A DNA stretch of 61,201 bases, filler included, from 4 parts of 4 records of this genome joined end to end with filler, not necessarily neighbours in it; one strand, 5' to 3'; shown: positions 20,626 to 50,782, numbered from the whole stretch's first letter. Numbers and translations are program-made. Notes: a model not told the origin generated them from the letters alone.

Positions 20626-20725
20626 NNNNNNNNNNNNNNNNNNNNNNNNNNNNNNNNNNNNNNNNNNNNTTAATTAATTAANNNNNNNNNNNNNNNNNNN
20701 NNNNNNNNNNNNNNNNNNNNNNNNN
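20626..20725. other. Artificial contig linker
   Basis: N44-TTAATTAATTAA-N44, with stops in all six frames. Confidence 0.99.
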
Positions 20726-24136: not shown

Positions 24137-25993
24137 TTACAATCCTAATTCGTCCGCGGCCGGCCCCAGGCCCAGCATCTCAAGTCGAGCGCGGGTGGGG
24201 ACGCCATTATCGTCCCATCCTCTGAGTTGATAGTATTCATTAAGTTGAAATTCCAGGTCCGCGGCTTTACCGGCCGAACCGCCGTCAGGCAACGGCGTGA
24301 TCAGTCGTTTGGGCAAAGTGTCGTCCTTTCGGGTTATTCCCTCGCGATATGAGAAAGCCCTTTGCAGGTTGACTATGCGCTCGCCCGCCTGGAGAATGGT
24401 TTGGGTGTTGTGGGGCTGTCCGGCCACGATGCCGAGAAGCATACCCACGTGGGATGGCTGCAAGGCCATGCCGGCGAACATGCACATGGCCGTGGAATTG
24501 TGTACGGCCGCAACATCCTGGGCCACCTTGGCCGCCAGTCCTTTTTGTTTTTTATCGTGCCGGCCCTGCTTGTAATGCAGGCCGGCTTCAGGGGATATCA
24601 CCGCCATTTCAACAGTGTACGATCCGCCTTGCACGTGGCAGGCCCCTCGCGGGCCGGTGGCGTAATTCACGGCCAGGCTGAAATAGCAGCGGGGGTCGTG
24701 CATGGGCACTTCCAGGCCCTTGACCTGTATGGCGTATTCTTCCGAACCCTGGCCGACCTCCTGGGAAGCAATGCGGGTTCCCTTGTCAAGGAGCGCGCCG
24801 AAACCTTCCACCTTGCACATTTGGTCAAGCACTTCGAGCGTTGCGTCAACATTGCCCCAGGTCAGATCCAGGCCCCCGGTGTCCTCTTTAGTCAGTGCGC
24901 CTTTTTCATAAGCTTCCATGGCCCAGGCAATTGTGCAGCCGGCGGAAATCGTATCCAGACCGGCGTTGTTGCACATTTCACCCATCCAGGACACTGCTTC
25001 CAGGTCGTCAATAAGGCACATGGTGCCCAGGGCGCCTAATGTTTCATATTCCGGGCCCGGCCCTTCGTATTTGAAACGGCCTTCGGGAATTTCAACCCAC
25101 CTTGCGCAACGTATGGGGCAATTGTAGCAGGCGCCGCCGTGGGGTTTGAGAATGGTGTCGGCCATTTTGGCCCCGCCCAGGTTGACGCAGCCTTCCTGCC
25201 ACAGGCCCACCTGCCAGTTTTTGATGGGCACGTCTCCGGCGGCCCATCCCATGTCCATGCTGAAAGCCGTGCCCCACTTGGTAAAGAAGCCGGCAAACGG
25301 GTCTTCGGCCACACCGTTGTTTATTTCCTGGGCCATGATTTTAAGGAAATCGTCGGCCGCCGGATTTATTTTCTGGGTTCCGAGGCAGACGATGGCCTTC
25401 AGGTTCTTTGAACCCATAACCGCGCCCAATCCCCCGCGGCCGGCCGCCCGTCCTTCATCGTTCATAATGCATGAAATATTGGCCAGACCTTCTCCGGCCC
25501 GGCCTATGCCGGCGACGCGGGCTCTCTTTTTCGGCGCGCGCTCCTTTAGTATTTCCTGGGTATCATAAAAGTCCTTGCCCCAGAGATCGGAAGCGTCCTT
25601 TAAGGTTACGCCTTCATCAAGCATCTCCAGGTAAACCGGTTTTGGAGATTTACCTTCAAAGATTATGCCGTCATACCCGGTTTTCTTCAGTTCAACCCCC
25701 CAGAAGCCTGAAGATGTGGCCGTGCTTATAATTCCGGTCAATGGCGATTTGCCGCCAACCGTAAAGCGGCCCGAAGTAGGGAACCTTGTTCCGGTCACCG
25801 GACCGGTCATGAAAATAAGCTTGTTGTTTTCGCCCAATGGATCGGTGTTGGCAGGCACTTCGTCATAAAGATGCCTTGTGGCGAATCCGGCGCCGCCGAT
25901 ATAAGTTTGAGCAATACCAGGATCGATTTCCTCCGTGGTCATGTTTCCGGAGGAAAGGTTTACGCGCAAAATTTTACCCATGTATCCAAACAT
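24137..25993 (-). CDS. aor: Tungsten-dependent aldehyde:ferredoxin oxidoreductase family
   Basis: KSPLTG, GRGGLGAVMGSKNLKA, CYNCPIRC, GPEYET, GLDTIS and RGACH motifs. Confidence 0.93.
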   Translation of the reverse strand: MFGYMGKILRVNLSSGNMTTEEIDPGIAQTYIGGAGFATRHLYDEVPANTDPLGENNKLIFMTGPVTGTRFPTSGRFTVGGKSPLTGIISTATSSGFWGVELKKTGYDGIIFEGKSPKPVYLEMLDEGVTLKDASDLWGKDFYDTQEILKERAPKKRARVAGIGRAGEGLANISCIMNDEGRAAGRGGLGAVMGSKNLKAIVCLGTQKINPAADDFLKIMAQEINNGVAEDPFAGFFTKWGTAFSMDMGWAAGDVPIKNWQVGLWQEGCVNLGGAKMADTILKPHGGACYNCPIRCARWVEIPEGRFKYEGPGPEYETLGALGTMCLIDDLEAVSWMGEMCNNAGLDTISAGCTIAWAMEAYEKGALTKEDTGGLDLTWGNVDATLEVLDQMCKVEGFGALLDKGTRIASQEVGQGSEEYAIQVKGLEVPMHDPRCYFSLAVNYATGPRGACHVQGGSYTVEMAVISPEAGLHYKQGRHDKKQKGLAAKVAQDVAAVHNSTAMCMFAGMALQPSHVGMLLGIVAGQPHNTQTILQAGERIVNLQRAFSYREGITRKDDTLPKRLITPLPDGGSAGKAADLEFQLNEYYQLRGWDDNGVPTRARLEMLGLGPAADELGL

Positions 25994-26004: not shown

Positions 26005-27327
26005 CTATGGCGCTCTCATGTCTTCAAGGTCAACTTCATCTTCACGCTTGAACCCGCCAGGCGGATAGACATCGCCCTTTTTTGCCAAAAGTTTGCCGAT
26101 CTTGGTTCCAACCGGTTCGGTATTGCATAGGAATGGAGTTGCATCCTCGGCCGGCGGAACTTCGATCAGTTCGTATTCGCGGGTTCCAAGGCCGATTTTC
26201 TGGCCGACATTTGGTTGAATTTCCTCGCTCACCCCTATGAATGAACCGCAGGCGGCAAACTTGGGCAGGCCCGGGTCCATAACGCCTTTTTGCATGGCCA
26301 GGGAATCAGGCATGCCCGCCGATTCTTTCGATTTTTGGATACAGGCCGAATCAAGCGCCACAGGATCCCAGGAAGCGAAAAGTCCGAGGTTGGGAATAAT
26401 CGGCCGATCGCTGAAATTGACGCAGTCGCACCATGGTGTAATGTCCAGGGCGAAATTGATGAAGCCGACTTTATCCGGTCCGCCGATGGCTTTGACAGTT
26501 GCCAGGGCCGAATCCGTAATGGCCGCGGCGGTCATGTCAAAGAAATCATCCGGCAGAAAGGCCACGCCGCACATGGTGACCACGCCGACGCAGGCCAGGC
26601 AGCCGATGCATTTATCCCTGTGAAATTCAACCGAGTCTTTAGTATGGACAATAGCGTTGGCCGGGCAGAGATTAAGACATGTTTCGTAATCAGGGCATTC
26701 TTCCTTGATGCAGCGTTCCGGCATCCAGTGTCGGGCGCAAAGGCCGTACCTGGGATGCCCGCCAAGGTGCAGATTGAACTTGCCGCGTTTTGAGGCGCAG
26801 CCAACGCCTATGTTCTTAAGCGCCCCTCCATAAGTGCCCATGGGATGGCCCTTGAAGTGGCTGAGAGCTATCATGCTGTCGGCAAGGGCGATCGCTGTGC
26901 CGATGTACTGTTCCTTAAGGATAAAGCCCTCCGGAAGGTCGACTCTCATGTCATCGGTTCCGATGTAACCATCGGCAATGATAATGGGGCAGCCCATGGC
27001 GTCCGGCGTGAAGCCGTTCCTGGCCACGGTTTTCAGGTAGTCAAGGGCCGTGGCCCTGGAAGAATATGGCCAGTAGGGCAGGGTGGTCGTGTCCACGACC
27101 ATGGGATCGCCGCCCAGGCTTTTGATTTTTTCAACAAGTCCGCGAACGTAAACCGGTCTCAGGTAGGCCGTGTTGTTCCATTCGCCCATGTGGAGTTTAA
27201 TTGCTACAACATCTCCAGGTTTTATCATCTCCTCAAATCCCGCGGCTTCAAACAGCGTAATCGTTTTGGCCACAAGGCTTGTCTGAATTGAGGTTGATCG
27301 ATCGTTCATGAAGAAAACCTTCGCCAT
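26005..27327 (-). CDS. DUF362 domain protein with a ferredoxin-like Fe-S insert
   Basis: VAIKLHMGE, SHFKGH, GGALKN, CIGCLAC, DITPWCDC and DPVALD motifs. Confidence 0.85.
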   Translation of the reverse strand: MAKVFFMNDRSTSIQTSLVAKTITLFEAAGFEEMIKPGDVVAIKLHMGEWNNTAYLRPVYVRGLVEKIKSLGGDPMVVDTTTLPYWPYSSRATALDYLKTVARNGFTPDAMGCPIIIADGYIGTDDMRVDLPEGFILKEQYIGTAIALADSMIALSHFKGHPMGTYGGALKNIGVGCASKRGKFNLHLGGHPRYGLCARHWMPERCIKEECPDYETCLNLCPANAIVHTKDSVEFHRDKCIGCLACVGVVTMCGVAFLPDDFFDMTAAAITDSALATVKAIGGPDKVGFINFALDITPWCDCVNFSDRPIIPNLGLFASWDPVALDSACIQKSKESAGMPDSLAMQKGVMDPGLPKFAACGSFIGVSEEIQPNVGQKIGLGTREYELIEVPPAEDATPFLCNTEPVGTKIGKLLAKKGDVYPPGGFKREDEVDLEDMRAP

Positions 27328-28106: not shown

Positions 28107-31100
28107 ATGTACAAAACTCCTAAATTCTCCTTTACTGTATTAGTCTTATTTATAGTGATTGCGGCGATAAAAAGTCTATGGCCGTTTCAGTTATTCGCCA
28201 TGGACCCTGAAAAAAAACTGTCACTTCATAGAGAAAAGAAAAGTATCACCGTTGCGTACTGCAATGACAGCCCGCCTTTTCACTACCAGGATGAGTCCGG
28301 ACAGCCCGCCGGACTGCTTATCGACTATTGGAAGCTGTGGTCTGAAAAAACATGGATCACAATTATTTTCAAGCCGGCCGCCTGGGATGAAACGCTAGAG
28401 TTGGTTAAAACCGGGCAGGTAGACGCCCATGCCGGCCTTTTCTACAGCAAAGAGCGGGACGAATATCTTTTATACAGCGAGCCTATCAGCAAAACGGACA
28501 CCCACCTTTTCTACCATAAAACCCTGCCCGCCCCTCAAGATGTCAAGGACGCCGTTCCATATCGGGTGGGGGTTATTTCCAAAGACTTTGTAGAAGGCTA
28601 TATAAAGGAAAAAGCACCCCGGGCTGCCCTGGTTCCTTTTCAAACCTATGACGAAATGATGGAGAGTCTGCGGAATGGCGAGCTTAAAATGTTCGCCGCC
28701 GACACCCTGACCGGGTTGTACAAATTGCAGAAAAGCGGGTTGGCTCAATACTATAAATACCGGAGCACCCAGCCTTTGTACCAAAACAACTGGTTTTTTG
28801 CCGTGGCCGAGGGGCGGGAAGACCTCATACGGCGCATCAATAGTGGTTTGGCTCTTATCACCAGGGATGAGAGACTTCTGATCAACCGCAGTTGGGCCGG
28901 CGGGACCAAATCAGGAGAGGCCGGGGACTTGATTGTGGCCATTGATAGCAACTATCCGCCGTTCTCCCTGGTGGGGCCGGACGGTAATCCCACGGGCCTT
29001 CTGGTGGAGATGTGGGAACTTTGGAGTAAGGCTGCCGGCATCCCCATACGTTTCAGGCCAAGCTCGTGGGCGGAAACCATCGAGGCCGTGAAAAACGGGG
29101 AAGCCGATGTGCATTTCGGCCTTTTCATAAACGAGGAACGGAAGGAGTGGCTGAATTTTTCATCGCCGCTGCATGAGATTCGAACCGCCCTGTATTTTCG
29201 GGCCGGTCAGGGAGAACCTCTTTCTCTCGCCGAATTGGCCGGCCAAAAGGTCGGCGTCTTGAAAGGCTCTTTCCAGGAAGCCTGGCTCAGGAGCAAATAC
29301 CCGAACCTCGAGGTAATCGATTACATCGATGGTGAAGGCATGGTCATCGCACTGATTAAAGGAGAGATCGCGGCTATAGTCCACGAAGTGCCTGGAGTTG
29401 AAGCCGCCGTAAACATGCTTGGCCTCAAGGGCGCATTGATAAGGGGCGAAGATCTCTTTGGAAACACTGTCCATGCCGGCGTCCGTAGGGACCGTCCCCT
29501 GTTGCTGAAGGCGATCGAAAATGGTTTCTCAATGGTCGACCGGGAAAAACTTGCCGAACTGGATAAGCGTTGGATAGCCAATCCGGAAGATCGATACTAT
29601 CATTCCGTCACGAGCAAAATGCGGCTTACGGAGGAGGAAAATGCGTTCCTTCAATCTCACCCGAAAATCCGCATCGGCGTCATGGCCGCCTGGCCGCCTA
29701 TGAACTTCGTGGACGATACAGGTCAGCCGAGCGGTCTCGGTGCGGACTATGTCAAAGCCCTGAACCTAAAACTGGACGGTGTGCTGGAGATCGAGCCCGG
29801 GCCCTTCAAGGAGAACCTGGAACAGGTCAAATCCAGGAAGCTCGACGCTCTAATGGATGTAACGCCCAAGCCCGAGCGTGAGGAATTCCTCAATTTCACC
29901 CGCTCCTATCTGGCCATCCCCCACGTTATCGTGGCCCGGCAGGACGGCCCCTATTACGGTTCCGAGACAGAACTGAATGGAAAGACCCTGGCCCTGGAAA
30001 CAGGCTTCTACAATGTCAAGTATTTCCGGCAAAAATACCCGGGCGTGAAAGTGGAAGAATACCCCAACACCGCCATGGCCCTGGACGCTGTATCAAGGGG
30101 CAAGGCCGACGCCTATGCGGGCAACAGGGCTGTGGCCAACTGGATACTGGAAAAGGAACTCATTAGCAACCTCCAGGTCCAGGGCAGGCTTAGCAAGCCT
30201 AGCGCCATATTAGCCATTGGCGTGCGCAAGGACTGGCCCGAGTTGGCCTCTATCCTGGACAAGGCCCTGGCCTCAATGTCTGTGGATGAGGTCAGGGCGA
30301 TCCACCGCCGGTGGGCCGGCCTGGGCGCCGAAGAGACGGCCGACCAGCGCCTGGTACTGACCGACGAGGAAAAGTCGTGGTTGAAAGCCCATCAAAAGCT
30401 GCGTCTGGGAATCGATCCCACCTGGCCTCCCGTAGAATTTTTTAATGAAAATAAAGAGTATGTCGGAATCGCCTCGGGCTTTGTAAAAGCCATGGAAAAG
30501 AAATTAGGCCTGACCTTTGATCCAGCCCTAGGGCTCTCCTGGCCTCAGGTCATAGAAGGTCTTAAGAACAAGGATTTGGATGCGGTGGCCGCGGTAGCCC
30601 GCACCCCGGAGCGCGAGGATTACCTCGTTTTCACTAAACCGTACGTCACGTTTCCCGCAGTGGTCGTCACCCAGAAAGACGCTCCGTTTGTGTCGGAGAT
30701 TGGAGACCTGGCGGGTAAAAAAGTCGGGGTAATCGAGGGATATGCAGTTCAGGGATATCTCAAGGATAATTTCCCTGGTATCAGGATCGAGCCCAGGTCG
30801 AACTTGACGGAGCTTCTTCGCTCCATCTCCGTAGGCGAGTTGGACGCCGTCGTCTGCAGCCTTGCCGCGGTGACCTACGGCATAGACCACCAGGGTATTA
30901 CCAACCTCAGGATTGCCGCAACGACCGACTTCTCATACAAACTCAGCATGGGAGTCCGTAAAGACTGGCCGGAACTGGCCTTGATCCTTGACAAGGCCTT
31001 TGATGCAATGACCGCGGCCGAGAAAGCAGAGATAAAAAACCGTTGGGTGTCTATCCAGTACATTCAGGGCCTGAAGCTGCGTACGGTTCTTAAATGGGCC

Positions 31101-32513
31101 ATACCCATAGCAGCCGGCCTGATGGTGATTCTTTCGGTCATTATCCTGTGGAACCGTAGGCTCGGTCGGGAGGTTGCCGAGCGTAAGCGGGCTGAAGAGC
31201 AACTTCTGGAGTCGGAAAAGAAAACGCGGGCCATGAGCGAGGCGGTTCATGATGGATTGATAATGATCGACGGCCGGGCCAAGGTTATGTACTGGAACCA
31301 GGCTGCGGAAAAACTCTTCCGCATACCGGCGGATGAGGCCTTGGGCAAGGATATTCACACCTTGTTTGTGCCTGAAGAGTATCGGGAACAGGCCAGGGCC
31401 GGGCTGAAGGTGTTTGCGGAAACCGGTCAGGGCCCGGTTGTGGGAAAAATACAGGAATTGACCGCTTTGCGTAGCGACGGCGCCAGGTTCCCGGTGGAGG
31501 TTGGCGTGTCCGCCTTCCAGGTGGGCAATAAATGGTACGCCGTGGGCACGGTGCGAGATATCACGGAACGAAAACAGATCGAAGAACAAATCAAAGCCAC
31601 TCGTGAAGAACTGCTGCTTATTTTCAATAACAGCCAGGTCGGCATCATGTTCATGCACGGCGATTGCCAATTGGCCAGGGTCAACCGGGGGCTGGCCGAG
31701 ATCCTCGAGTACGAAGTCCCAAAGGAGATGATCGGTTTCAGCATGAGTCAGTTGCACTTGAGCGAGGAGCGTTTTCAGGCTTTCAAAAAGTCGAATCATG
31801 ATGTGTTGTGTCAGGGTAAGCAGAGCAAGGTCGAATATCAGCTTCGCAAGAAAGACGGCTCGGCCGTATGGTGTTCCATGTCCGGAAAGGCCGTGGACAC
31901 AGCCAGTCCCCCTGATCTGAGCAAAGGCGTCATCTGGGTCGTTGACGACATCTCCCGGCGCAAACGGATTGAAGACGACCTACGGGAATCCGAGGAGCGC
32001 AGCAGGCTTGTTCTGGAATCCGCCGGCGAGGGTATTTTTGGAGTCGACGCTTCCGGTCATATGACCTTTGTCAATCCGGCCGCCATCCACATGCTTGGCT
32101 ACACAAAAGAAGAACTGCATGGGCAGGATGTTCACCAACTAATCCATCATACTCACGCTGACGGCGCTCCATATCCCATAGAAGACTGTCCCATATCCGC
32201 CTCTTGTCAGCAGGGGACCATTCATCAGGTTGCCGACGAGGTGCTGTGGCGCAAAGACGGCAGCAGTTTTTTCGCCGAATATTCCTGCACGCCGATGCAT
32301 AAGAACGGCGGGGTGATCGGCGCCGTAGTCACCTTCCGAGACGTCACCGAACGCAAAAAAGTTGAAGAAGAATTGAATCAGCACCTGGAAGACCTTGAAA
32401 GGTTCAACCGGTTGGTAATCGGACGTGAAGAAAAGATGATCGACCTTAAATCCGAAATCAACGATTTGCTGGGGCAGTCCGGCCAAGGCAAAAAGTATAA
32501 AATTGTCGAGTGA
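28107..32513 (+). CDS. Membrane sensor with 4 periplasmic PBPb domains, a TM helix and 3 PAS domains, no catalytic output domain
   Basis: Four repeats starting DSPPF/NYPPF/AWPPM/TWPPV, TM ending WNRRL, three PAS-PAC units ending DITERK/DISRRK/DVTERK, C-terminus LERFNRLVIGREEKMIDLKSEINDLL. Confidence 0.9.
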   Translation: MYKTPKFSFTVLVLFIVIAAIKSLWPFQLFAMDPEKKLSLHREKKSITVAYCNDSPPFHYQDESGQPAGLLIDYWKLWSEKTWITIIFKPAAWDETLELVKTGQVDAHAGLFYSKERDEYLLYSEPISKTDTHLFYHKTLPAPQDVKDAVPYRVGVISKDFVEGYIKEKAPRAALVPFQTYDEMMESLRNGELKMFAADTLTGLYKLQKSGLAQYYKYRSTQPLYQNNWFFAVAEGREDLIRRINSGLALITRDERLLINRSWAGGTKSGEAGDLIVAIDSNYPPFSLVGPDGNPTGLLVEMWELWSKAAGIPIRFRPSSWAETIEAVKNGEADVHFGLFINEERKEWLNFSSPLHEIRTALYFRAGQGEPLSLAELAGQKVGVLKGSFQEAWLRSKYPNLEVIDYIDGEGMVIALIKGEIAAIVHEVPGVEAAVNMLGLKGALIRGEDLFGNTVHAGVRRDRPLLLKAIENGFSMVDREKLAELDKRWIANPEDRYYHSVTSKMRLTEEENAFLQSHPKIRIGVMAAWPPMNFVDDTGQPSGLGADYVKALNLKLDGVLEIEPGPFKENLEQVKSRKLDALMDVTPKPEREEFLNFTRSYLAIPHVIVARQDGPYYGSETELNGKTLALETGFYNVKYFRQKYPGVKVEEYPNTAMALDAVSRGKADAYAGNRAVANWILEKELISNLQVQGRLSKPSAILAIGVRKDWPELASILDKALASMSVDEVRAIHRRWAGLGAEETADQRLVLTDEEKSWLKAHQKLRLGIDPTWPPVEFFNENKEYVGIASGFVKAMEKKLGLTFDPALGLSWPQVIEGLKNKDLDAVAAVARTPEREDYLVFTKPYVTFPAVVVTQKDAPFVSEIGDLAGKKVGVIEGYAVQGYLKDNFPGIRIEPRSNLTELLRSISVGELDAVVCSLAAVTYGIDHQGITNLRIAATTDFSYKLSMGVRKDWPELALILDKAFDAMTAAEKAEIKNRWVSIQYIQGLKLRTVLKWAIPIAAGLMVILSVIILWNRRLGREVAERKRAEEQLLESEKKTRAMSEAVHDGLIMIDGRAKVMYWNQAAEKLFRIPADEALGKDIHTLFVPEEYREQARAGLKVFAETGQGPVVGKIQELTALRSDGARFPVEVGVSAFQVGNKWYAVGTVRDITERKQIEEQIKATREELLLIFNNSQVGIMFMHGDCQLARVNRGLAEILEYEVPKEMIGFSMSQLHLSEERFQAFKKSNHDVLCQGKQSKVEYQLRKKDGSAVWCSMSGKAVDTASPPDLSKGVIWVVDDISRRKRIEDDLRESEERSRLVLESAGEGIFGVDASGHMTFVNPAAIHMLGYTKEELHGQDVHQLIHHTHADGAPYPIEDCPISASCQQGTIHQVADEVLWRKDGSSFFAEYSCTPMHKNGGVIGAVVTFRDVTERKKVEEELNQHLEDLERFNRLVIGREEKMIDLKSEINDLLGQSGQGKKYKIVE

Positions 32514-34287: not shown

Positions 34288-34874
34288 TGCCCAAGTTGGA
34301 TATGCATTTTATAAAGCGCTCGCTTGAGGGGCCTGAAAACGAATGTGGGGACGCCGGGATTGTCAGAGAAGCTGATAACGAATGTTTTTTAGCCCTGATA
34401 GACGTTCTGGGACATGGGAGGGAAGCCCACAAGGTTTCGGTTCTGGCGGTGGAATTTTTAAAGGAAAATTATTCCCAAGGCCTGGTCGACCTGATGAACG
34501 GACTCCATTCACACCTAAAGGGCGCCAGGGGGGCTGTGGCGGCTCTGGGCCGCCTGAACCTACAAAACGGCGAATTGCGTTATGTCGGCGTGGGCAATAT
34601 CAGCGCAAGAATATACGGGACCAGGCCTTATCGATTCGTCCCCCGGGACGGCATTATCGGATACATGATATCCACGCCTAAAGAACACAAGGTCAAGTTG
34701 AAGGGCGGGGATATCCTGGTTCTGTCCTCGGATGGAGTGAAGGAGCATTTTAATTTAATCGACTATCCCGACCTCCTGACGGGCTCAGCCGGCACGATTG
34801 CCGCCAACATTCTTGATCGATTGGGCAAAGGCAATGATGACGCCTCTTGTATCGTATTGAGGTACTTACAATGA
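34287..34874 (+). CDS. rsbX: RsbX-like PP2C/SpoIIE phosphatase
   Basis: ECGD, DVLGHG, GVGNI, SDG and DDAS motifs. TGATG overlap with rsbT. Confidence 0.85.
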   Translation: MPKLDMHFIKRSLEGPENECGDAGIVREADNECFLALIDVLGHGREAHKVSVLAVEFLKENYSQGLVDLMNGLHSHLKGARGAVAALGRLNLQNGELRYVGVGNISARIYGTRPYRFVPRDGIIGYMISTPKEHKVKLKGGDILVLSSDGVKEHFNLIDYPDLLTGSAGTIAANILDRLGKGNDDASCIVLRYLQ

Positions 34875-35506
34875 CGGAATTGGGTCGACTGCAAATTAAA
34901 ACTCCGCAATCCATGAATGAAGCCAGAAGAAAAATCCTGAACCTGGCTGAAGCCCTGGAGTATGACTCCTTCCAAGCCAACAGGCTGGCCACAATATTTT
35001 CCGAACTGATCCGTAGCGGGGATATTGGAAAACCTGACGTTAACGTCGCCATAAGCCTCAAGAGAAATCATGGGCGAAACGGATTGAACTTGGATTTTGC
35101 ATATGGTCAAAAGGCAAAACCGAATCCGATTGCTTTGCGTTTTTTTGATGTTTTGGACGTGGATCTGGCCGGTGAGCCCTTCACTACAGTATCAGCGTTC
35201 AAATATTTAAATGATTCCGGCCCTGATCTTTCAACGGAATTCATTGAAAAACAAAAACAAATTCTAAGCCGGCCGTCCAGAGAGGAGATGTTCTACGACC
35301 TTCAGAGAAAAAACGAGGAATTAATATCCTCGGCCCAAGAAACTCAACAGGCTAAAGAGACGGCTGAAAAAGCGACTGAAGCTCTCCAGGATCAAATCAA
35401 GGAACTGGCCATGGCCCGTCGGGCCATGTTGAATATTCTGGAGGACCTGGATGAAGCAAAAAAGGAAGCTGTAGCCGCCACCCAGGCGAAAAGCGACTTT
35501 TTGGCT
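34871..35506 (+). CDS. Histidine kinase with N-terminal RsbT-like domain, 3'-truncated by the contig edge
   Basis: ATGA overlap with rsbX. N-terminus ...RLATIFSELIR is RsbT-like, followed by a coiled coil and AKSDFLA just before the expected H-box. Confidence 0.75.
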
Positions 35507-35606
35507 NNNNNNNNNNNNNNNNNNNNNNNNNNNNNNNNNNNNNNNNNNNNTTAATTAATTAANNNNNNNNNNNNNNNNNNNNNNNNNNNNNNNNNNNNNN
35601 NNNNNN
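35507..35606. other. Artificial contig linker
   Basis: N44-TTAATTAATTAA-N44. Confidence 0.99.
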
Positions 35607-35607
35607 T

Positions 35608-35958
35608 TTTAAAATGCCTTATCAGGGGCTTAAAACCCAGGTAGAGACCTTCAATGCCGCGATCAAGGCCGGGGAGGACAAGGAGTTCGGCAAACCGCTG
35701 GGGAAGGCCCACGTTATTAAAGCGCCCTATTATGCGGCGCGTACCTGGCCCAAGGTTCATTACACCATGGGCGGGGTGGCCATTAATGAAACCGGCCAGG
35801 TCCTGCACATGGGGACCGGAGAACCCATCCCCGGGCTCTATGCCGCCGGGGAATGCACCGGCGGCCCCCACGGCGCCAGCCGGCTGGGAAGCTGCGCCGT
35901 TGCCGAAACCCTTGTCATCGGTCGGATCGCCGGACGGACGGCAGCCACAACTGCCTGA
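35608..35958 (+). CDS. Flavocytochrome c / fumarate-reductase-family flavoprotein, C-terminal fragment
   Basis: PKVHYTMGG, PIPGLYAAGE, HGASRLGS and GRIAG motifs. Frame is open from the contig edge. Confidence 0.9.
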   Translation, partial: FKMPYQGLKTQVETFNAAIKAGEDKEFGKPLGKAHVIKAPYYAARTWPKVHYTMGGVAINETGQVLHMGTGEPIPGLYAAGECTGGPHGASRLGSCAVAETLVIGRIAGRTAATTA

Positions 35959-36022
35959 TCCGGTGCTGCCTGTGTTAAGATAAAACCATATAAAATTACA
36001 ATAGATTACAGGAGTTAATATC

Positions 36023-37684
36023 GTGCGTTCATACAAACAGATTATAACCGTGGTTTCCATGGCATTTATGGTGCTTTTTTCCGCCAACGTTTTTGCCGCC
36101 TCACCGGTAAAACTCACCGGGTACGACCTGACCCTGGAAGAGGTCATGGATGTGGCCAACGGTGCCGAAGTCGTCATTGCTCCGGCCGCCATTGAACAGA
36201 TGAAGAAAAGCCACAAGCTGCTCATGGCTTTTGCCGCCGAAGGCCGTCCGGTTTACGGCCTTACCGTGGGCGTGGGCCTGAACAAGGACAAATCCATTTT
36301 TGATGCCGACGGGAAACTGTCCTCCGAGGTCATTGCCCTGTCCAAACAATTCAATAAAAATGCCCTGCGGGCCCATTCCGCCGCCTACGGCCCTGAAATG
36401 TCCGCCCCCATGGTCCGTGCCACCATGGTGATCCGCCTGAACACCATGCTCACCGGCCGTGCTGCCGCCCAGCCCTATGTGGCAGAGCTTTATGCCGCCT
36501 TTCTGAATAAGAACCTGCTGCCCGTCATTCCCTCCCGGGGGACTGTGGGCGAATGCGATATCACCATTGCGCCCCATATCGGCCTGGTCATGATGGGGGA
36601 ATGGAAAGCCGATTTCAAGGGCAAACGCATGTCCGGTAAAGATGCCCTGAAAGCTGCCGGCCTGACTCCCCTTGCTCCCTATGGAAAGGATGCCCTGGCC
36701 ATCCTGAGCACCAATGCACCGGCTGCTGCCCAGGCCGTTTTTGCCGTTATGGAAGCCGAGCATTTCATGGCAGTTGCACCCAAAGTATTTGCCGTCAGCC
36801 TGGAGGGCCTGAACGGCAACGTGGCGCCCTTCCTGAAACCGGTGAATGATGTACGCCCCTTTGCCGGATTTGCCCTGGCTTCCAAGGTGATCCGCGACGA
36901 GCTGGCCGGCAGTTACCTGTGGCAGCCCAGAAAGGGCCGCGCCCTCCAGGATGCCCTGTCCTACCGGACCTCCGCCTATGTATTCGGCGGTGTCTATGAA
37001 GCCCTGATCAATGCCAAGAAAAAACTGGGTGTTCAGATCAACTCCTCCGACGACAACCCGGCCGTGGTTGTGGATGCCAAACCCTCGGATCCCGCCCTGG
37101 GACAGCTCAAAGGCTACTATCTGGAAGCCGACGGCGTAAAAGGGGCCATCTATCCCACTGCCAACTTTGAACCCCTTCCCTTTGTTCTGGACATTGAATA
37201 CCTCTCCATTGCCCTGAGCCATGTCTCCCGCAATGCCGCCATGAGAACCATTAAGCTTTCCGATCCCAAGTTCACCCACCTGTCCCGGTTCCTGGCCGCA
37301 GATAACGTGGCCATCAACTTTGGCGCCATCCAGAAACCTTTTGTGGCATTGGATGCCGAAATCCGCAGCCTGGCCAACCCCGTGTCCCAGGACAGCATTC
37401 CCATGGCCGGCAACATCGAAGACACCGCCACCAACTCCATGCGGGCCGCCCTGAACCTGGCAAAGATCGTGGACAACCTTTACTATGTTTACGGTCTCGA
37501 GCTTTTCCATGCCTCCCAGGCCGTCAGCCTCCGTCAGCGTGACGAATCCGGCATCATCCTCGGAAAAGGGACCCGCCCCTTTTTCAATGCCTATCGCAAG
37601 ACCGTTCCCTTTGTCACCGAAGACCGTCCCTTCTCCCCCGACATTCAGAATTCCTATGATTTCCTGAAAGGGTATGCCAAATAA
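36023..37684 (+). CDS. Secreted HAL/PAL-superfamily lyase lacking the MIO triad (ergothionase-like)
   Basis: Sec signal ending NVFA, VYGLT, SSDDNP, QDALSYR and NIED motifs. GTVGECD replaces GSVGASGD. Confidence 0.88.
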   Translation: MRSYKQIITVVSMAFMVLFSANVFAASPVKLTGYDLTLEEVMDVANGAEVVIAPAAIEQMKKSHKLLMAFAAEGRPVYGLTVGVGLNKDKSIFDADGKLSSEVIALSKQFNKNALRAHSAAYGPEMSAPMVRATMVIRLNTMLTGRAAAQPYVAELYAAFLNKNLLPVIPSRGTVGECDITIAPHIGLVMMGEWKADFKGKRMSGKDALKAAGLTPLAPYGKDALAILSTNAPAAAQAVFAVMEAEHFMAVAPKVFAVSLEGLNGNVAPFLKPVNDVRPFAGFALASKVIRDELAGSYLWQPRKGRALQDALSYRTSAYVFGGVYEALINAKKKLGVQINSSDDNPAVVVDAKPSDPALGQLKGYYLEADGVKGAIYPTANFEPLPFVLDIEYLSIALSHVSRNAAMRTIKLSDPKFTHLSRFLAADNVAINFGAIQKPFVALDAEIRSLANPVSQDSIPMAGNIEDTATNSMRAALNLAKIVDNLYYVYGLELFHASQAVSLRQRDESGIILGKGTRPFFNAYRKTVPFVTEDRPFSPDIQNSYDFLKGYAK

Positions 37685-37786
37685 CCCGCACCATCTTTTT
37701 CCAAGATGGTTCTGAGTCAACTCCCCTGGGAATCGCCCGGCAACGGTGCGGTTCCCGGGGCCTTACCATGCTAGTAGGTATAAATT

Positions 37787-38233
37787 ATGAAGACGTATAT
37801 CCGGACTTGTCTGGCCATGGCCATACTTTCCTGTACCCTGTTTGCGACCCATTCCCTCTGGGCTGAGGATGCCGCTCCCGCCCCGGCCTATGAGCCCGGG
37901 GTGACGGAAAAAGTTACCCTGTGGATGGACAGGACACTGGGCAGAAAAACCGTAAAACCCTATCATCAGAAAATCCATCAGAACGGCACCAATTGCGCCC
38001 TGTGCCACGGCGCCGAAAATCCCACCAAAGCGGCCGATGATGCCAACTGCCTCAAGTGCCACGGGACCCGGGAGCAGGTGGCCCAACTCACCGCCGAACT
38101 GGAACCCAACCCCCATGATTCTCCCCATTATGGCTTTGATGTCCCCTGCAGCACCTGCCACATGGAGCACAAGCCGTCCGAGATCTATTGCAGCAGCTGC
38201 CACGCCTTTAAGTACGATAATTTTAAGAAATAG
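37787..38233 (+). CDS. Periplasmic tetraheme cytochrome c (flavocytochrome heme-subunit type)
   Basis: Signal peptide, CALCH, CLKCH, CSTCH, CSSCH and NPHDSPH. Confidence 0.92.
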   Translation: MKTYIRTCLAMAILSCTLFATHSLWAEDAAPAPAYEPGVTEKVTLWMDRTLGRKTVKPYHQKIHQNGTNCALCHGAENPTKAADDANCLKCHGTREQVAQLTAELEPNPHDSPHYGFDVPCSTCHMEHKPSEIYCSSCHAFKYDNFKK

Positions 38234-38247
38234 AGGGGGTTGTTACC

Positions 38248-39888
38248 ATGCCAAAATATCTGACAGGGTTCTGTCTGGTATTCCTGTCCATCCTGACGGC
38301 CATACCGCTTTTCGCAGCCACCCCCCAGGTGGCGGCTGAAAATGCATCCTGCCTTCAGTGCCATGACGATCCGGACCTGGAACCCAGAACCCTTCGCGGG
38401 AAAACCCGCGATATCTATGTGCCCGGGCATCGCTTTGAAAAAAGTGTCCATGAAGGCCTGGCCTGCGCCTCATGTCACCAGACCGTCGAAAAGGACGGGG
38501 TGAAGCGGATGAAAACCGGCCAAAAAACAGAAGATATCAAATCCTGCCTGGAATGCCACCGGGATTATTTCCAGAAGGTGGAGACCAACTTTGCCATGAG
38601 TGTGCATGCCAAAAAGCTGGGCAATGCCATGGGCTGCGTCTCATGCCATGATCCCCATCTCATGCAGAAGGAAGACCCGGGTATGCCGACCGCCCGGCGG
38701 ATCCGGTTTGACAACGCCACCTGTATCACCTGTCACTCCGATTATGTGGGGTATAAGAAATTATCCGGCAAAGAGGTCTGGCAGCAGAATCTGGGCCATT
38801 CATTCCTGCCCTTCAAGGAAGAGCACTTTGAAAAGGTGCGCTGCATCGAGTGCCACACACCTGCCCAGGGCGACAACCGCCATACCATCCTGCCCGGGAA
38901 AGAGGCGTTGAAAGACTGTACCGGTTGCCACTCCGACGATTCCCTTCTGGTGGCCCGGACCCTGACCCCCACCTCTCCCGATGGGGCTGCCGGTGAATTC
39001 CTTGGAAAGGGCCTTTTTGATGACGCCGCCATCCGGGCCAGTCTGGCCAAAACCATCCGCCGGACCGCATCCCTAAAGCATACCGCATCGGTTGTGGATG
39101 AGCTGGGCTTTATCAATAAAGGGCGTTTCAAGAACACCTACCTCATCGGCGCCACCCGGAATCTGAAACTGGATGCCTGGGGCTTTAAGGCCCTGCTGGC
39201 TGTCCTGGCCGGAATCGCCATCCATGGGGGGCTGAGATTCCTGGCCTTCCTGAAACGGAAAGGAAACCCCGGGGGAGCGGTTCATTTAGAATATGTTTAC
39301 GATCTCAACGTGCGCATTCTCCACTGGACCAATGCCTTGCTGTTTCTCGTGCTCATGGCCAGCGGATTCAACCTCCACCTGGGAGGAAAGGTGTTTGATT
39401 TTGCCTTCGGTGTGCGGGTTCACCATATTGCCGGCGGGCTGCTGGTGATCAATTACCTCTGTTTTGCGGTCCTGAGCATCGCCCTGGGCAATATCCGGCA
39501 TTATCTCCCCCGGCCTGAAAAACTGGTAACCCGCTGGTGTATCCAGGCCCGGTATTATCTCTGGGGGATTTTCAAGGGCGCACCCCATCCCTATCGGGTG
39601 ACCCGGGAGCAGAAATTCAACCCCCTGCAACAGGCCGCCTATCTGCCGGTGATGTACCTGTTTTTGCCCCTGCTCATCCTTTCAGGGATTTGGATGTTTT
39701 TCCCCGGACTCACGCCGGAATCCATTCTGGGCTTCCCCGGCAGATGGGTGACAGCGACGGTGCATTATCTTCTGGCTGTCGGTTTTACCCTTTTCCTGGC
39801 CGGCCATCTTTATCTGTGTTCCACAGGAGATAGACTCGGGACATTGATCAAAGGCATGTTCACCGGTTATCATACTTCAGATCATTAA
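38248..39888 (+). CDS. Heptaheme cytochrome c fused to a membrane cytochrome b (putative quinol-oxidising module)
   Basis: Signal peptide, seven CxxCH motifs, then a b-type domain with RILHW, VHH, KFNPLQ, VHY and GHLY His ligands. Confidence 0.88.
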   Translation: MPKYLTGFCLVFLSILTAIPLFAATPQVAAENASCLQCHDDPDLEPRTLRGKTRDIYVPGHRFEKSVHEGLACASCHQTVEKDGVKRMKTGQKTEDIKSCLECHRDYFQKVETNFAMSVHAKKLGNAMGCVSCHDPHLMQKEDPGMPTARRIRFDNATCITCHSDYVGYKKLSGKEVWQQNLGHSFLPFKEEHFEKVRCIECHTPAQGDNRHTILPGKEALKDCTGCHSDDSLLVARTLTPTSPDGAAGEFLGKGLFDDAAIRASLAKTIRRTASLKHTASVVDELGFINKGRFKNTYLIGATRNLKLDAWGFKALLAVLAGIAIHGGLRFLAFLKRKGNPGGAVHLEYVYDLNVRILHWTNALLFLVLMASGFNLHLGGKVFDFAFGVRVHHIAGGLLVINYLCFAVLSIALGNIRHYLPRPEKLVTRWCIQARYYLWGIFKGAPHPYRVTREQKFNPLQQAAYLPVMYLFLPLLILSGIWMFFPGLTPESILGFPGRWVTATVHYLLAVGFTLFLAGHLYLCSTGDRLGTLIKGMFTGYHTSDH

Positions 39889-39910
39889 ATTTACATTACT
39901 GCCTGCAATC

Positions 39911-39942
39911 AAAGGCCTTCGGTTTTTCCGGAGGCCTTTGTT
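39911..39942 (+). terminator. Terminator closing the lyase/cytochrome operon
   Basis: AAAGGCCTTCGG / CCGGAGGCCTTT hairpin. Confidence 0.65.
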
Positions 39943-39957
39943 CGCAAAATATCGTGT

Positions 39958-40140
39958 ATGCTGGAGAAGCATCAGGTTCATCATCAGCCTTGACGTCCGG
40001 CCGTTCCCGTCGATGAAGGGATGGATGGTTGCAAGCCGTTCATGGATTTCGGCGCAGAAAACCACCGGATGCAGGGCCGCGCCCTCTTCACTGGCCCAGA
40101 GGATCAGGTCCTCCATGAGTTTGGGAACCTGCCAGGGCTG
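39958..40140 (-). pseudogene. Internal fragment of a Fic-domain gene
   Basis: About 60 aa containing HPFIDGNGRTSR, flanked by non-homologous sequence on both sides. Confidence 0.8.
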
Positions 40141-40579
40141 TGTTTCGATTATAGCCTTTTGAAATTGATTTAGGTGGAAACACATAGCTTCTAAAATACC
40201 AGAAATTCCATGTGTATATCCAGGCCATGGTTCTTTTCCATAAATTCTCCAGTACGACTGCCAATAGAAAATGGAATTACTTTCTCTCCGATAAATTTTG
40301 AGGCACCATATCCATTGATATTCTGGAAAAATGCCTAAACAAAAGGCTCATAGGTCACTTCCGCCGACATGTAAATCGAAAAGTTCTATTCCATTTTCAA
40401 GAGCAAAATTGGTTTCCAGTGTTGATTTGCATCTTTTGCAGGACCTTCTGAAGCGCGAATATGCGTCGTCTGAATTGAACCCGGAGGCGAGGGCAAAAAA
40501 TCTCGATTTGATTGATCTTATGCTATTTCACGGGATTTACGAAGTGGATAGCGATTGTAATCGCCCATGACCGATGGTG

Positions 40580-43202: not shown

Positions 43203-44447
43203 TTGGACATTACACCGATTAGTGAAATCGACTCGGAAATTGCAGAGATCATCAGGCAGGAAGAGCAACGGCAGGAACAGGGGCTCGAACTCATCGCATC
43301 TGAAAACACCGCAAGCCAGGCAGTTATGGCTGCCCAGGGCTCGGTTTTGACAAACAAGTATGCCGAAGGATACCCGTCAAAGCGCTATTACGGCGGATGT
43401 GCCGTGGTTGACCGGGCGGAGACCCTGGCAATTGACAGGGCAAGGGATCTGTTCAAGGCCGAGTATGCAAATGTTCAGCCCCACTCCGGCTCCCAGGCGA
43501 ACATGGCAGCCTATTTTGCCGTGATCAAGCCGGGAGACACCGTGCTTGCCATGGATCTTTCCCATGGCGGGCATCTTACCCATGGGAGTGGCGTCAGCTT
43601 TTCCGGCAGGCTCTTCAACTTTGTCCATTACGGTCTTTCGTCCGAAACAGAAATGATCGACATGGACGAAGTGGCGGATCTTGCCAAAAAACACCGGCCC
43701 AAACTGATCGTGGCCGGCGCAAGCGCCTATCCCAGGATTATCGATTTTAAGGCGTTCTCAGACATTGCAAAGGCAAACGACGCCTTGTTTATGGTGGATA
43801 TGGCCCACATCGCGGGACTCGTGGCCGGAGGGGTTCATCCCTCACCGGTCCCCCATGCCGATATTGTCACCTCCACCACCCACAAGACCCTCAGGGGGCC
43901 CAGGGGTGGTATCATTCTTTCATCCAATGAGATCGGGGCCAAGATTAACAGCCAGATCTTTCCCGGCATCCAGGGCGGGCCCTTGATGCACGTGATTGCG
44001 GCCAAGGCCGTGGCTCTGAAAGAGGCCCTCTCTCCGACTTTCGCCCAGTATCAGCAGCAGGTGGTGGCCAATGCGGCCGTCCTTGCCCAGAGTCTGATGG
44101 AACGGGGATTCGATCTTGTTTCCGGCGGTACCGACAACCACCTCATGCTGATGAATCTCACCAGCAAGGACCTGTCCGGAAAGGATGCCGAGAACCGTCT
44201 TGGGGCGGCAGGCATCACGGTGAACAAGAACGCCGTTCCCAACGATCCCAGGGGGCCCATGGTGACAAGCGGTATCCGGCTTGGAACGCCGCTCCTGACT
44301 TCCAGGGGAATGAAGGAGACGGAGATGAAGCTCGTAGCCAAATATATCTGCGACGTGCTTGAAGATGCTTCAGTCACGGACACCGTGCATGCAGGGGTGA
44401 AAGACCTTTGTAAGGCATTTCCCCTTTACGGGGGAAGCGCGAACTGA
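43203..44447 (+). CDS. glyA: Serine hydroxymethyltransferase
   Basis: [13 protein letters not shown] and [12 protein letters not shown] motifs. Confidence 0.97.
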
Positions 44448-50682: not shown

Positions 50683-50782
50683 NNNNNNNNNNNNNNNNNN
50701 NNNNNNNNNNNNNNNNNNNNNNNNNNTTAATTAATTAANNNNNNNNNNNNNNNNNNNNNNNNNNNNNNNNNNNNNNNNNNNN
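50683..50782. other. Artificial contig linker
   Basis: N44-TTAATTAATTAA-N44. Confidence 0.99.

Follow-up and report, generated by a model that had tools for sequence, protein, structure and literature searches.

The stretch of DNA analyzed here (the window; 61,201 nucleotides (nt), filler included) consists of four contigs joined by three linkers of the form N44-TTAATTAATTAA-N44, which carry stops in all six frames (positions 20626-20725, 35507-35606, and 50683-50782). At the extreme start of the third contig (35607-50682), a four-gene operon was identified, which encodes the end of a flavoprotein binding flavin adenine dinucleotide (FAD), a lyase of the histidine ammonia-lyase (HAL) superfamily predicted to lack the 4-methylideneimidazole-5-one (MIO) cofactor, a tetraheme cytochrome c, and a membrane-bound fusion of a multiheme cytochrome c with a cytochrome b. 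Together, these genes probably represent a module for the periplasmic respiration of ergothioneine. The following features were assigned (lengths in amino acids, aa):

35507..35606, no strand: assembly linker (N44-TTAATTAATTAA-N44) that interrupts the gene of the FAD subunit; what lies to its left belongs to another contig
35608..35958, + strand: C-terminus (116 aa) of the FAD subunit, SO_3058 type, of a two-subunit periplasmic flavocytochrome c (PF00890, 7e-23; TIGR01813, 3e-40)
36023..37684, + strand: exported MIO-less trimethylammonia-lyase, predicted ergothionase, 553 aa (PF00221, 7e-123; structure 6S7J, 8e-101; residue columns; tree)
37787..38233, + strand: exported tetraheme cytochrome c, 148 aa, heme subunit of the flavocytochrome and counterpart of SO_3056 (PF14537, 3e-15; four CXXCH motifs)
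38248..39174, + strand: periplasmic seven-heme c domain, with signal peptide, of the b/c fusion (seven CXXCH motifs)
39175..39888, + strand: membrane part of the fusion, comprising one linker helix and a PhsC/HydC-like cytochrome-b domain proposed to oxidize quinol (PF01292, 2e-21; NF011582, 184.7 bits; hydropathy)
39910..39940, + strand: 13-bp GC-rich hairpin, likely the operon terminator, located 22 nt past the last stop and followed by a weak U-tail

A preliminary description of the locus had proposed four co-oriented genes closed by one terminator, and this arrangement was recovered: all four genes are located on the + strand, separated by gaps of 64, 102, and 14 nt, with a single strong hairpin at the end. 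The 75-nt stretch containing this hairpin reached a folding energy of −29.6 kcal/mol (z −6.2), a value equalled by none of 200 shuffled sequences; the hairpin at 39910-39940 was not listed by a simple terminator scan because its U-tail is weak. The operon contains no uptake genes and no genes for downstream catabolism. The assignment of the first gene product to the fumarate-reductase family (PF00890, TIGR01813) was retained, but the window holds only the last 116 aa of the protein and not the whole gene. Since the linker joins separate contigs, the DNA to the left of position 35507 is not a true neighbor of the operon, and the sensor-kinase fragment found there (34847-35506) is unrelated to it. 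A contig from the sequencing run that is the likely source was found to span positions 35607-39950 with 0 differences and to extend 2,244 nt upstream beyond the start of the window contig, indicating that the cut through the FAD gene is an assembly gap and not biological.

The lyase gene starts with GTG, positioned 8 nt downstream of an AGGAG motif, and its product matches PF00221 over residues 36-526, corresponding to the full length of the profile (positions 1-466 of 466). Among solved structures, the ergothionase of Treponema denticola (6S7J, 8e-101) was the best relative, followed by a probable HAL (3.9e-49) and the HAL of Pseudomonas putida (2.5e-40). Residues were mapped through HMMER alignments to 1GKJ and 6S7J and through a 135-row alignment of relatives. 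Glu177-Cys178 of the window lyase aligns, with one residue deleted, to Ala142-Ser143-Gly144 of HAL and to the Glu-Gly of ergothionase: where HAL reads Gly-Ala-Ser-Gly-Asp, the window lyase reads Gly-Glu-Cys-Asp, and the ergothionase motif Gly-Glu-Gly-Asp has the same shorter length. The HAL-like outgroup row of the alignment shows Ala-Ser at the columns of the MIO triad. Because Ala-Ser-Gly is replaced and the motif is one residue shorter, MIO cannot form in the window lyase. The catalytic Tyr (Y78), the carboxylate ligands (Q309, R315, and N345), and the imidazole ligands (H118 and E466) were located by the same mapping, their roles being those listed for Swoo_3913 of Shewanella woodyi (10.1101/2025.08.13.670108). 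Furthermore, K438 occupies the position of ergothionase Lys384, which is reported to bind the thiolate and to be essential for activity, and which corresponds to Asn439 in Swoo_3913 and Gln434 in SO_3299 (10.1101/2025.08.13.670108; 10.64898/2026.04.22.720169). Six Shewanella lyases, of which three have a UrdA-like FAD gene right beside them and three have one at a distance of 4-5 kb, carry Asn in this column, as reported for Swoo_3913, and thereby validate its assignment. The residue pattern thus supports the classification of the window lyase as an ergothionase-type trimethylammonia-lyase. A true HAL was rejected, given the missing MIO triad, the closest similarity to ergothionase among solved structures, and the Lys at the thiolate site.

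At its N-terminus, the lyase features Arg/Lys followed by hydrophobic residues 7-25 (Kyte-Doolittle value of 2.18 over a 19-residue core) and the sequence VFA|A. The alignment to the cytoplasmic ergothionase begins at residue 30, and relatives without a FAD neighbor match from residues 25-31. The lyase is therefore predicted to be exported through the Sec system, with a signal peptide covering approximately residues 1-25. The preliminary description of a Sec-exported HAL/PAL-family (histidine/phenylalanine ammonia-lyase) enzyme without Ala-Ser-Gly agrees with the full-length PF00221 match, Glu177-Cys178, and this 25-residue hydrophobic extension.

To compare the operon with other genomes, species-representative genomes were searched in two scans. 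The first scan gave 145 pattern matches, 92 of them encoding relatives, and the 80 best were retained; of the 84 matches in the second, 39 encoded relatives, which yielded 37 loci. Together, 116 lyase loci were obtained, a few of which overlap each other (L014/L111 and L064/L115). FAD genes located within 2.6 kb of the lyase and encoding proteins at least 50% identical to the one of Desulfobaculum were regarded as SO_3058-like, and those with 30-40% identity as UrdA-like. All 47 lyases near an SO_3058-like FAD gene carry Lys at the K438 column, as opposed to none of the 16 adjoining a UrdA-like FAD gene (13 Asp, 3 Asn). Among the 54 lyases without a nearby FAD gene, Lys was found in 39, and Ala, Val, Ile, or Asn in the remaining 15. 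Lyases of the SO_3299 type (Gln) were found in none of the 135 aligned rows, and this class is hence not sampled in the tree described below.

Several variants were noted in the course of this survey. Asp at the Lys384 position occurs in thirteen exported lyases of Sutterellaceae located beside UrdA-like FAD genes (L015-L016, L018-L019, L021-L026, L029, L064, and L115), a class that is not described in the main text of either Shewanella preprint (10.1101/2025.08.13.670108; 10.64898/2026.04.22.720169). Other residues at this position are Val (Enterococcus, 4 loci) and Ala (Rhizobiales, 6 loci). Moreover, Thr replaces His118 in the lyases of L012, L013, L027, L031, and L034.

A quick maximum-likelihood tree (LG+G4, support by the Shimodaira-Hasegawa-like approximate likelihood ratio test (SH-aLRT), HAL-like outgroup) was calculated from 68 rows picked from the 135 to reduce redundancy. 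The window lyase grouped with its metagenomic relative P0001 (94% identity; support 100), then with four Desulfobaculum-type rows (99), and then with Salidesulfovibrio (98). The sister group (99) of this Desulfovibrionales/window clade comprises 38 rows with lyases from Shewanella, Ferrimonas, Enterobacterales, and Sutterellaceae. The cytoplasmic ergothionases branch outside both clades, including the one of Blautia producta, a species cited as an ergothioneine user (10.64898/2026.04.22.720169). The phylogeny suggested in the preliminary description as a check thus places the window lyase in a Desulfobaculum/Salidesulfovibrio clade, sister to the Shewanella-type clade. The conservation of the neighborhood, also suggested there, was likewise found: the four-gene order is kept in Desulfobaculum sp. 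SPO524, and the order FAD-lyase-tetraheme in 24 Shewanella loci.

The FAD fragment covers positions 322-413 of 414 of the PF00890 profile and retains the carboxylate-binding His and Arg (H445 and R486 in SO_3058-like numbering). Since it is 72% identical to the Desulfobaculum FAD protein and 59-60% identical to Shewanella SO_3058-like proteins, as opposed to 39-43% for UrdA-like proteins, the assignment of the window flavoprotein to the SO_3058 type (the proposed thiourocanate reductase), and not to the UrdA type, is supported by sequence comparison. Residues Gln168 and Thr312, as well as Trp296, Phe304, and Arg337, of SO_3058 have been proposed to bind thiourocanate (10.64898/2026.04.22.720169). 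These marker positions fall in the part of the window gene lost to the gap; the 72%-identical Desulfobaculum protein carries all five. They are also all present (Q168/W296/F304/T312/R337) in P0121, a metagenomic FAD protein of 520 aa that is 92-94% identical to the fragment and features a twin-arginine signal. In the survey, the set Q168/W296/F304/T312/R337/H445/R486 occurred in 44 of 44 SO_3058-like FAD proteins. The Shewanella xiamenensis protein, counted from its first ATG, reproduces the published SO_3058 numbering exactly (Gln168, Trp296, Phe304, Thr312, and Arg337), which identifies the surveyed FAD set as orthologues of so_3056-3058.

The third gene encodes, as described previously, an exported tetraheme cytochrome (148 aa, four CXXCH motifs, PF14537); it shares 59% identity with its Desulfobaculum counterpart and 42-47% with those of Shewanella encoded behind the SO_3057-type lyase. 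The seven-heme-c/cytochrome-b membrane fusion was also correctly recognized: the protein of 546 aa contains seven CXXCH motifs followed by the PF01292 domain. In 18 homologues, six of the heme-c motifs are invariant and one nearly so, and six further periplasmic His residues as well as His326, 359, 392, 506, and 520 of the membrane part are invariant. The second helix of the cytochrome-b domain, near His359, falls below the hydropathy cut-off. The match to NF011582 (PhsC) is restricted to residues 315-542 and remains under the curated cut-off of 204 bits. The assignment as a subunit of a PhsC/thiosulfate reductase was rejected on the basis of this score, the lack of adjacent genes for molybdopterin or iron-sulfur subunits, and the linkage to flavocytochrome genes.

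Of the 116 lyase-centered loci, only that of Desulfobaculum sp. SPO524 contained the b/c fusion, in the order FAD-lyase-tetraheme-fusion. A metagenomic relative of the fusion, P0241, is 81% identical to it. As a single query against the genome contigs, the fusion gave no match; with the 18-sequence alignment as query, 209 relatives were obtained, and the best 80 loci were examined. In 11 of these 80, the two domains are fused in one frame, and the remaining loci contain a heme-c gene followed by a separate cytochrome-b gene; such split pairs occur in Bacteroidales, Rhodocyclaceae, Calditrichota, and others. Directly behind FAD and tetraheme genes, the module was found in five of the 80 loci, all of them fused and labelled Desulfovibrionaceae, Desulfovibrio, Maridesulfovibrio, or Desulfobaculum; no other locus of the set bears such a label. 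Considering its domains and gene linkage, we infer that the b/c fusion functions as a quinol:flavocytochrome oxidoreductase. Four Desulfovibrionaceae loci (L118, L120, L121, and L123) represent FAD-tetraheme-b/c-fusion operons without a lyase. Their FAD subunits differ from SO_3058 in one marker, featuring Gln instead of Thr312; these flavocytochromes probably serve another acceptor and are candidate reductases for an enoate that is taken up ready-made.

From these features, the following mechanism can be proposed. The Sec-exported, cofactor-less lyase would split trimethylamine from ergothioneine, yielding thiourocanate in the periplasm. Electrons from membrane quinol would enter via the diheme-b domain of the fusion and pass through its seven c-hemes to the tetraheme subunit and further to the Tat-exported FAD subunit, which would reduce the C2=C3 double bond of thiourocanate, so that trimethylamine and dihydro-thiourocanate would be released. 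The general scheme, a lyase of the histidine-betaine type whose product is passed to a periplasmic enoate reductase, can be regarded as nearly certain. It is likely that the operon forms a self-contained module for respiring ergothioneine in the periplasm. The sequences show which genes are present and in which order, the export signals, the active-site residues of the lyase, the families of all four proteins, and the conserved linkage, whereas the substrate, the direction in which electrons flow, the role of quinol as donor, and energy conservation are what we infer from them. The chain outlined in the preliminary description, namely a self-made periplasmic acceptor respired via quinol, b/c fusion, tetraheme cytochrome, and flavoprotein, is hence supported by the lyase residues, the type of the FAD subunit, the gene order, and the linkage of the fusion.

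The same chain had been regarded as a new idea, which it is not, because its principle was already shown in two Shewanella preprints by a single laboratory, one of which names Desulfobaculum among the holders of such clusters. In S. woodyi, a periplasmic histidine-betaine trimethylammonia-lyase was described to feed urocanate reductase (10.1101/2025.08.13.670108). For Shewanella oneidensis, SO_3057 was reported to be a periplasmic ergothionase induced by ergothioneine, which supports anaerobic growth and respiration, and SO_3056/3058 were proposed, by modelling, to reduce thiourocanate; Desulfobaculum is listed there without detail (10.64898/2026.04.22.720169). The pair of an exported ergothionase and a thiourocanate flavocytochrome c is thus not new. 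What appears new for the operon studied here, judging from the genes it contains and from its relatives, is the Desulfobacteraceae host, the apparently accessory nature of the operon, and its own b/c quinol dehydrogenase. The main texts of both preprints (10.1101/2025.08.13.670108; 10.64898/2026.04.22.720169) make no mention of cytochrome b, quinol, menaquinol, or CymA, though their supplements may depict the Desulfobaculum cluster with its b/c gene. A literature search, judged by titles and abstracts, returned nothing on ergothioneine as an electron acceptor in sulfate-reducing bacteria.

Like so_3056-3058, the window operon encodes an exported MIO-less lyase with the diagnostic Lys between FAD and tetraheme genes, along with a FAD subunit that is, judged by the proxy P0121, probably of the Q168/T312 type, and the order FAD-lyase-tetraheme is the same in 24 whole Shewanella loci of the so_3058-3056 type. 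Identities to the Shewanella orthologues amount to approximately 51% for the lyase, 59-60% for the FAD fragment, and 42-47% for the tetraheme cytochrome. Shewanella flavocytochromes are usually fed by a cytochrome c that belongs to the respiratory chain (10.64898/2026.04.22.720169). In contrast to the window operon, none of these 24 loci contains the fusion within its 5-kb flanks, and their hosts are gammaproteobacteria and not Desulfobacteraceae. The cytochrome c feeding the Shewanella flavocytochromes is CymA. A quinol dehydrogenase of the NapC/NirT type encoded within the operon of a flavocytochrome c is known from FccABC of Wolinella.

Desulfobaculum is the nearest named relative for all four window proteins. 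Desulfobaculum sp. SPO524 (L001/L117) features the identical FAD-lyase-tetraheme-fusion order and the same Glu-Cys at the MIO site of the lyase, with identities of 72, 67, 59, and 48-63% for the FAD, lyase, tetraheme, and fusion proteins, respectively; however, it belongs to a different order than the window host. Upstream of its operon, a divergent gene for a sigma-54-dependent activator with an unassigned N-terminal sensor part of approximately 210 aa was found (L001 4503-6089, − strand), whereas the corresponding region is missing from the window. A serine hydroxymethyltransferase gene is located about 0.5-3.5 kb downstream of the operon both in Desulfobaculum (L001 12435-13694, − strand) and in the window (43203-44447, + strand), possibly by coincidence.

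The T. denticola ergothionase (6S7J) shares the length of the MIO-less motif, and its catalytic Tyr and thiolate-binding Lys align with those of the window lyase; however, it is cytoplasmic, whereas the window lyase features a signal peptide and an insertion of 23 residues (residues 354-376). Swoo_3913/Swoo_3912 follow the same logic, a periplasmic lyase making the acceptor for a neighboring periplasmic enoate reductase under release of trimethylamine, but differ in the Asn at the diagnostic column and in the FMN_bind-FAD (UrdA) reductase; the window lyase is approximately 40% identical to such lyases. For the fusion, CbcL of Geobacter sulfurreducens, described as an inner-membrane bc-type quinol oxidase with a diheme-b domain and a nine-heme periplasmic domain (PMC9129911), can be compared by architecture only: in both, a membrane diheme-b part is joined to a periplasmic multiheme-c part handing electrons to a small periplasmic cytochrome, with 9 c-hemes and 6 helices in CbcL versus 7 c-hemes and approximately 5 helices in the window fusion. 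In a Geobacter metagenome-assembled genome (MAG), only split heme-c/cytochrome-b gene pairs were found, 34-35% identical in the b part.

The GlyA protein encoded on the same contig as the operon shares 96% identity with its counterpart in a Desulfobacteraceae MAG, 81% with that of an uncultured Desulfobacterium, 70% with that of Desulfobacter, and 62-65% with those of Desulfovibrionaceae. By this comparison, the host is a member of the Desulfobacteraceae and not of the Desulfovibrionales. It had previously been taken for a sulfate reducer. This is supported by kinship, as dsrA was detected above the curated cut-off in the MAG closest by GlyA, but not by the window itself, since no dsr, apr, or sat genes were seen among the window open reading frames scanned. 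The same MAG encodes a HAL-family homologue (L277, G001:C39:14942-16417; 32% identical to the window lyase) with one in-frame TGA.

The operon is apparently accessory and was probably acquired laterally: its nearest relatives do not match those of the host, the terminator borders on a truncated Fic gene, and the remaining contig consists of housekeeping genes (gltX, rpiB, glyA, nrdR, and rib genes). Base composition was rejected as an argument for lateral transfer: with a GC content of 0.55-0.56 in the operon and 0.49-0.57 in the flanks, it is not discriminating, and the argument rests on the discordant nearest relatives. The Fic/DOC fragment (39877-40185, − strand; 101 aa; PF02661, 4e-15, profile positions 38-93 of 93, motif HPFxDGNGR) extends across the terminator region into the final 12 nt of the fusion gene, is followed by approximately 450 nt of apparently non-coding DNA, and may be a scar of the event by which the operon arrived.

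Several points weigh against the assignment as a module for ergothioneine respiration. The half of the FAD subunit that defines the substrate is missing from the window and was judged through the proxy P0121, and the reduction of thiourocanate by SO_3056/3058 rests on modelling and not on an assay (10.64898/2026.04.22.720169). The Lys is needed for ergothionase activity, but may not suffice for excluding other 2-substituted histidine betaines, and in the clade of the window lyase, Cys178 replaces the Ala of most relatives and the Gly of T. denticola. The role of the fusion as quinol dehydrogenase is deduced from its domain family and gene linkage, with a score below the PhsC equivalog cut-off. 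Finally, lyase (best match 32%) and fusion orthologues were not found with these queries in the MAG closest by GlyA, the completeness of which is unknown; as this MAG yielded neither, the trait does not appear to be a stable property of the lineage.

The alternative that survives best retains the whole architecture and changes the substrate to another 2-substituted or modified histidine betaine, such as selenoneine or a marine thiohistidine betaine, with a reductase acting on the matching urocanate analogue. A few residues are sufficient to shift the specificity of these lyases, given that a single column can hold Lys, Asn, Gln, Asp, Val, or Ala, and for SO_3299 the true natural substrate is still reported as unknown (10.64898/2026.04.22.720169). 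In addition, the Desulfovibrionales/window clade is separate (SH-aLRT 98-99) and has its own Cys178. However, no residue reported to be necessary for ergothionase activity is missing, the FAD proxy carries the exact SO_3058 marker set, and no positive pointer to another compound was found; this alternative is therefore considered unlikely.

A non-respiratory role, i.e., the scavenging of sulfur or nitrogen or the detoxification of ergothioneine or thiourocanate without energy conservation, would be in line with the catabolic function of cytoplasmic ergothionases (10.64898/2026.04.22.720169). Yet all four window products are predicted to be exported or membrane-bound, the operon lacks uptake and downstream catabolic genes, a quinol-linked heme chain ending in an enoate reductase represents the layout of a terminal reductase, and the homologous genes occur in S. 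oneidensis, where ergothioneine supports anaerobic growth. We regard this role as improbable. It is less plausible still that the operon encodes a hercynine (histidine-betaine) lyase with a urocanate reductase, as in S. woodyi Swoo_3913/3912. Although the lyase family and the periplasmic logic are shared, the diagnostic column holds Lys and not Asn, and the Lys-bearing SO_3057 was reported to be inactive on pure histidine betaine (10.64898/2026.04.22.720169). Moreover, the FAD fragment is only 39-43% identical to UrdA-like proteins versus 59-72% to SO_3058-like ones, and the partner is a two-subunit heme flavocytochrome and not an FMN_bind-FAD fusion. A decaying remnant with a truly truncated FAD gene, as might be suspected from the end of that gene at the contig start and the 101-aa Fic fragment overlapping the 3′ end region, is hardly credible, given that the cut coincides with the N-linker and the contig from the likely source run continues for 2,244 nt without differences on the shared part, that the frames of the three complete genes are intact and none of their catalytic and heme motifs is missing, and that copies with 95-99% identity occur in three other environmental runs.

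Elsewhere in the window, three further loci were noted. At the start of the fourth contig (50727-52346, − strand), a protein with an archaeo-eukaryotic primase domain of the TOTE conflict system (PF22548, 4e-101) and a ResIII helicase piece is encoded, representing a candidate defense-system gene. A sensor protein of 1,468 aa, in which four periplasmic SBP_bac_3 domains are combined with several PAS domains, is encoded at 28107-32513 (+ strand), and a tungsten-type aldehyde:ferredoxin oxidoreductase is encoded beside a DUF362 protein at 24137-25993 and 26005-27327 (both − strand).

With a quinol-oxidizing b/c cytochrome of its own, the operon would allow the entire chain to be expressed as a single transcription unit and to be transferred in one piece. 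In Desulfovibrionaceae, the same fusion also accompanies flavocytochromes without a lyase, which suggests a general module for feeding electrons into periplasmic enoate reductases in organisms lacking CymA. As the four-gene set is also present in cultured Desulfobaculum, the prediction is directly testable. With the operon, the host range of the system is widened to the Desulfobacteraceae. Copies with 95-99% identity were detected, as fragments, in three environmental runs from salt marsh (11 pieces), beach sand (12), and a microbial mat (5), suggesting that ergothioneine is perhaps an overlooked electron acceptor and source of trimethylamine in sulfate-rich sediments. More tentatively, and with doubts prevailing, it is conceivable that a portable and self-sufficient chain from quinol to an organic acceptor has moved between orders of sulfate-reducing Desulfobacterota, that it makes such bacteria direct producers of trimethylamine in coastal sediments, from ergothioneine or a marine analogue such as selenoneine, and that the fusion is the general quinol:flavocytochrome-c oxidoreductase of Desulfovibrionaceae. 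For trimethylamine, methanogens face no competition from sulfate reducers. If this tentative reading is true, the operon would represent an unrecognized link in coastal sediments, leading from sulfate reducers via trimethylamine to methylotrophic methanogens.

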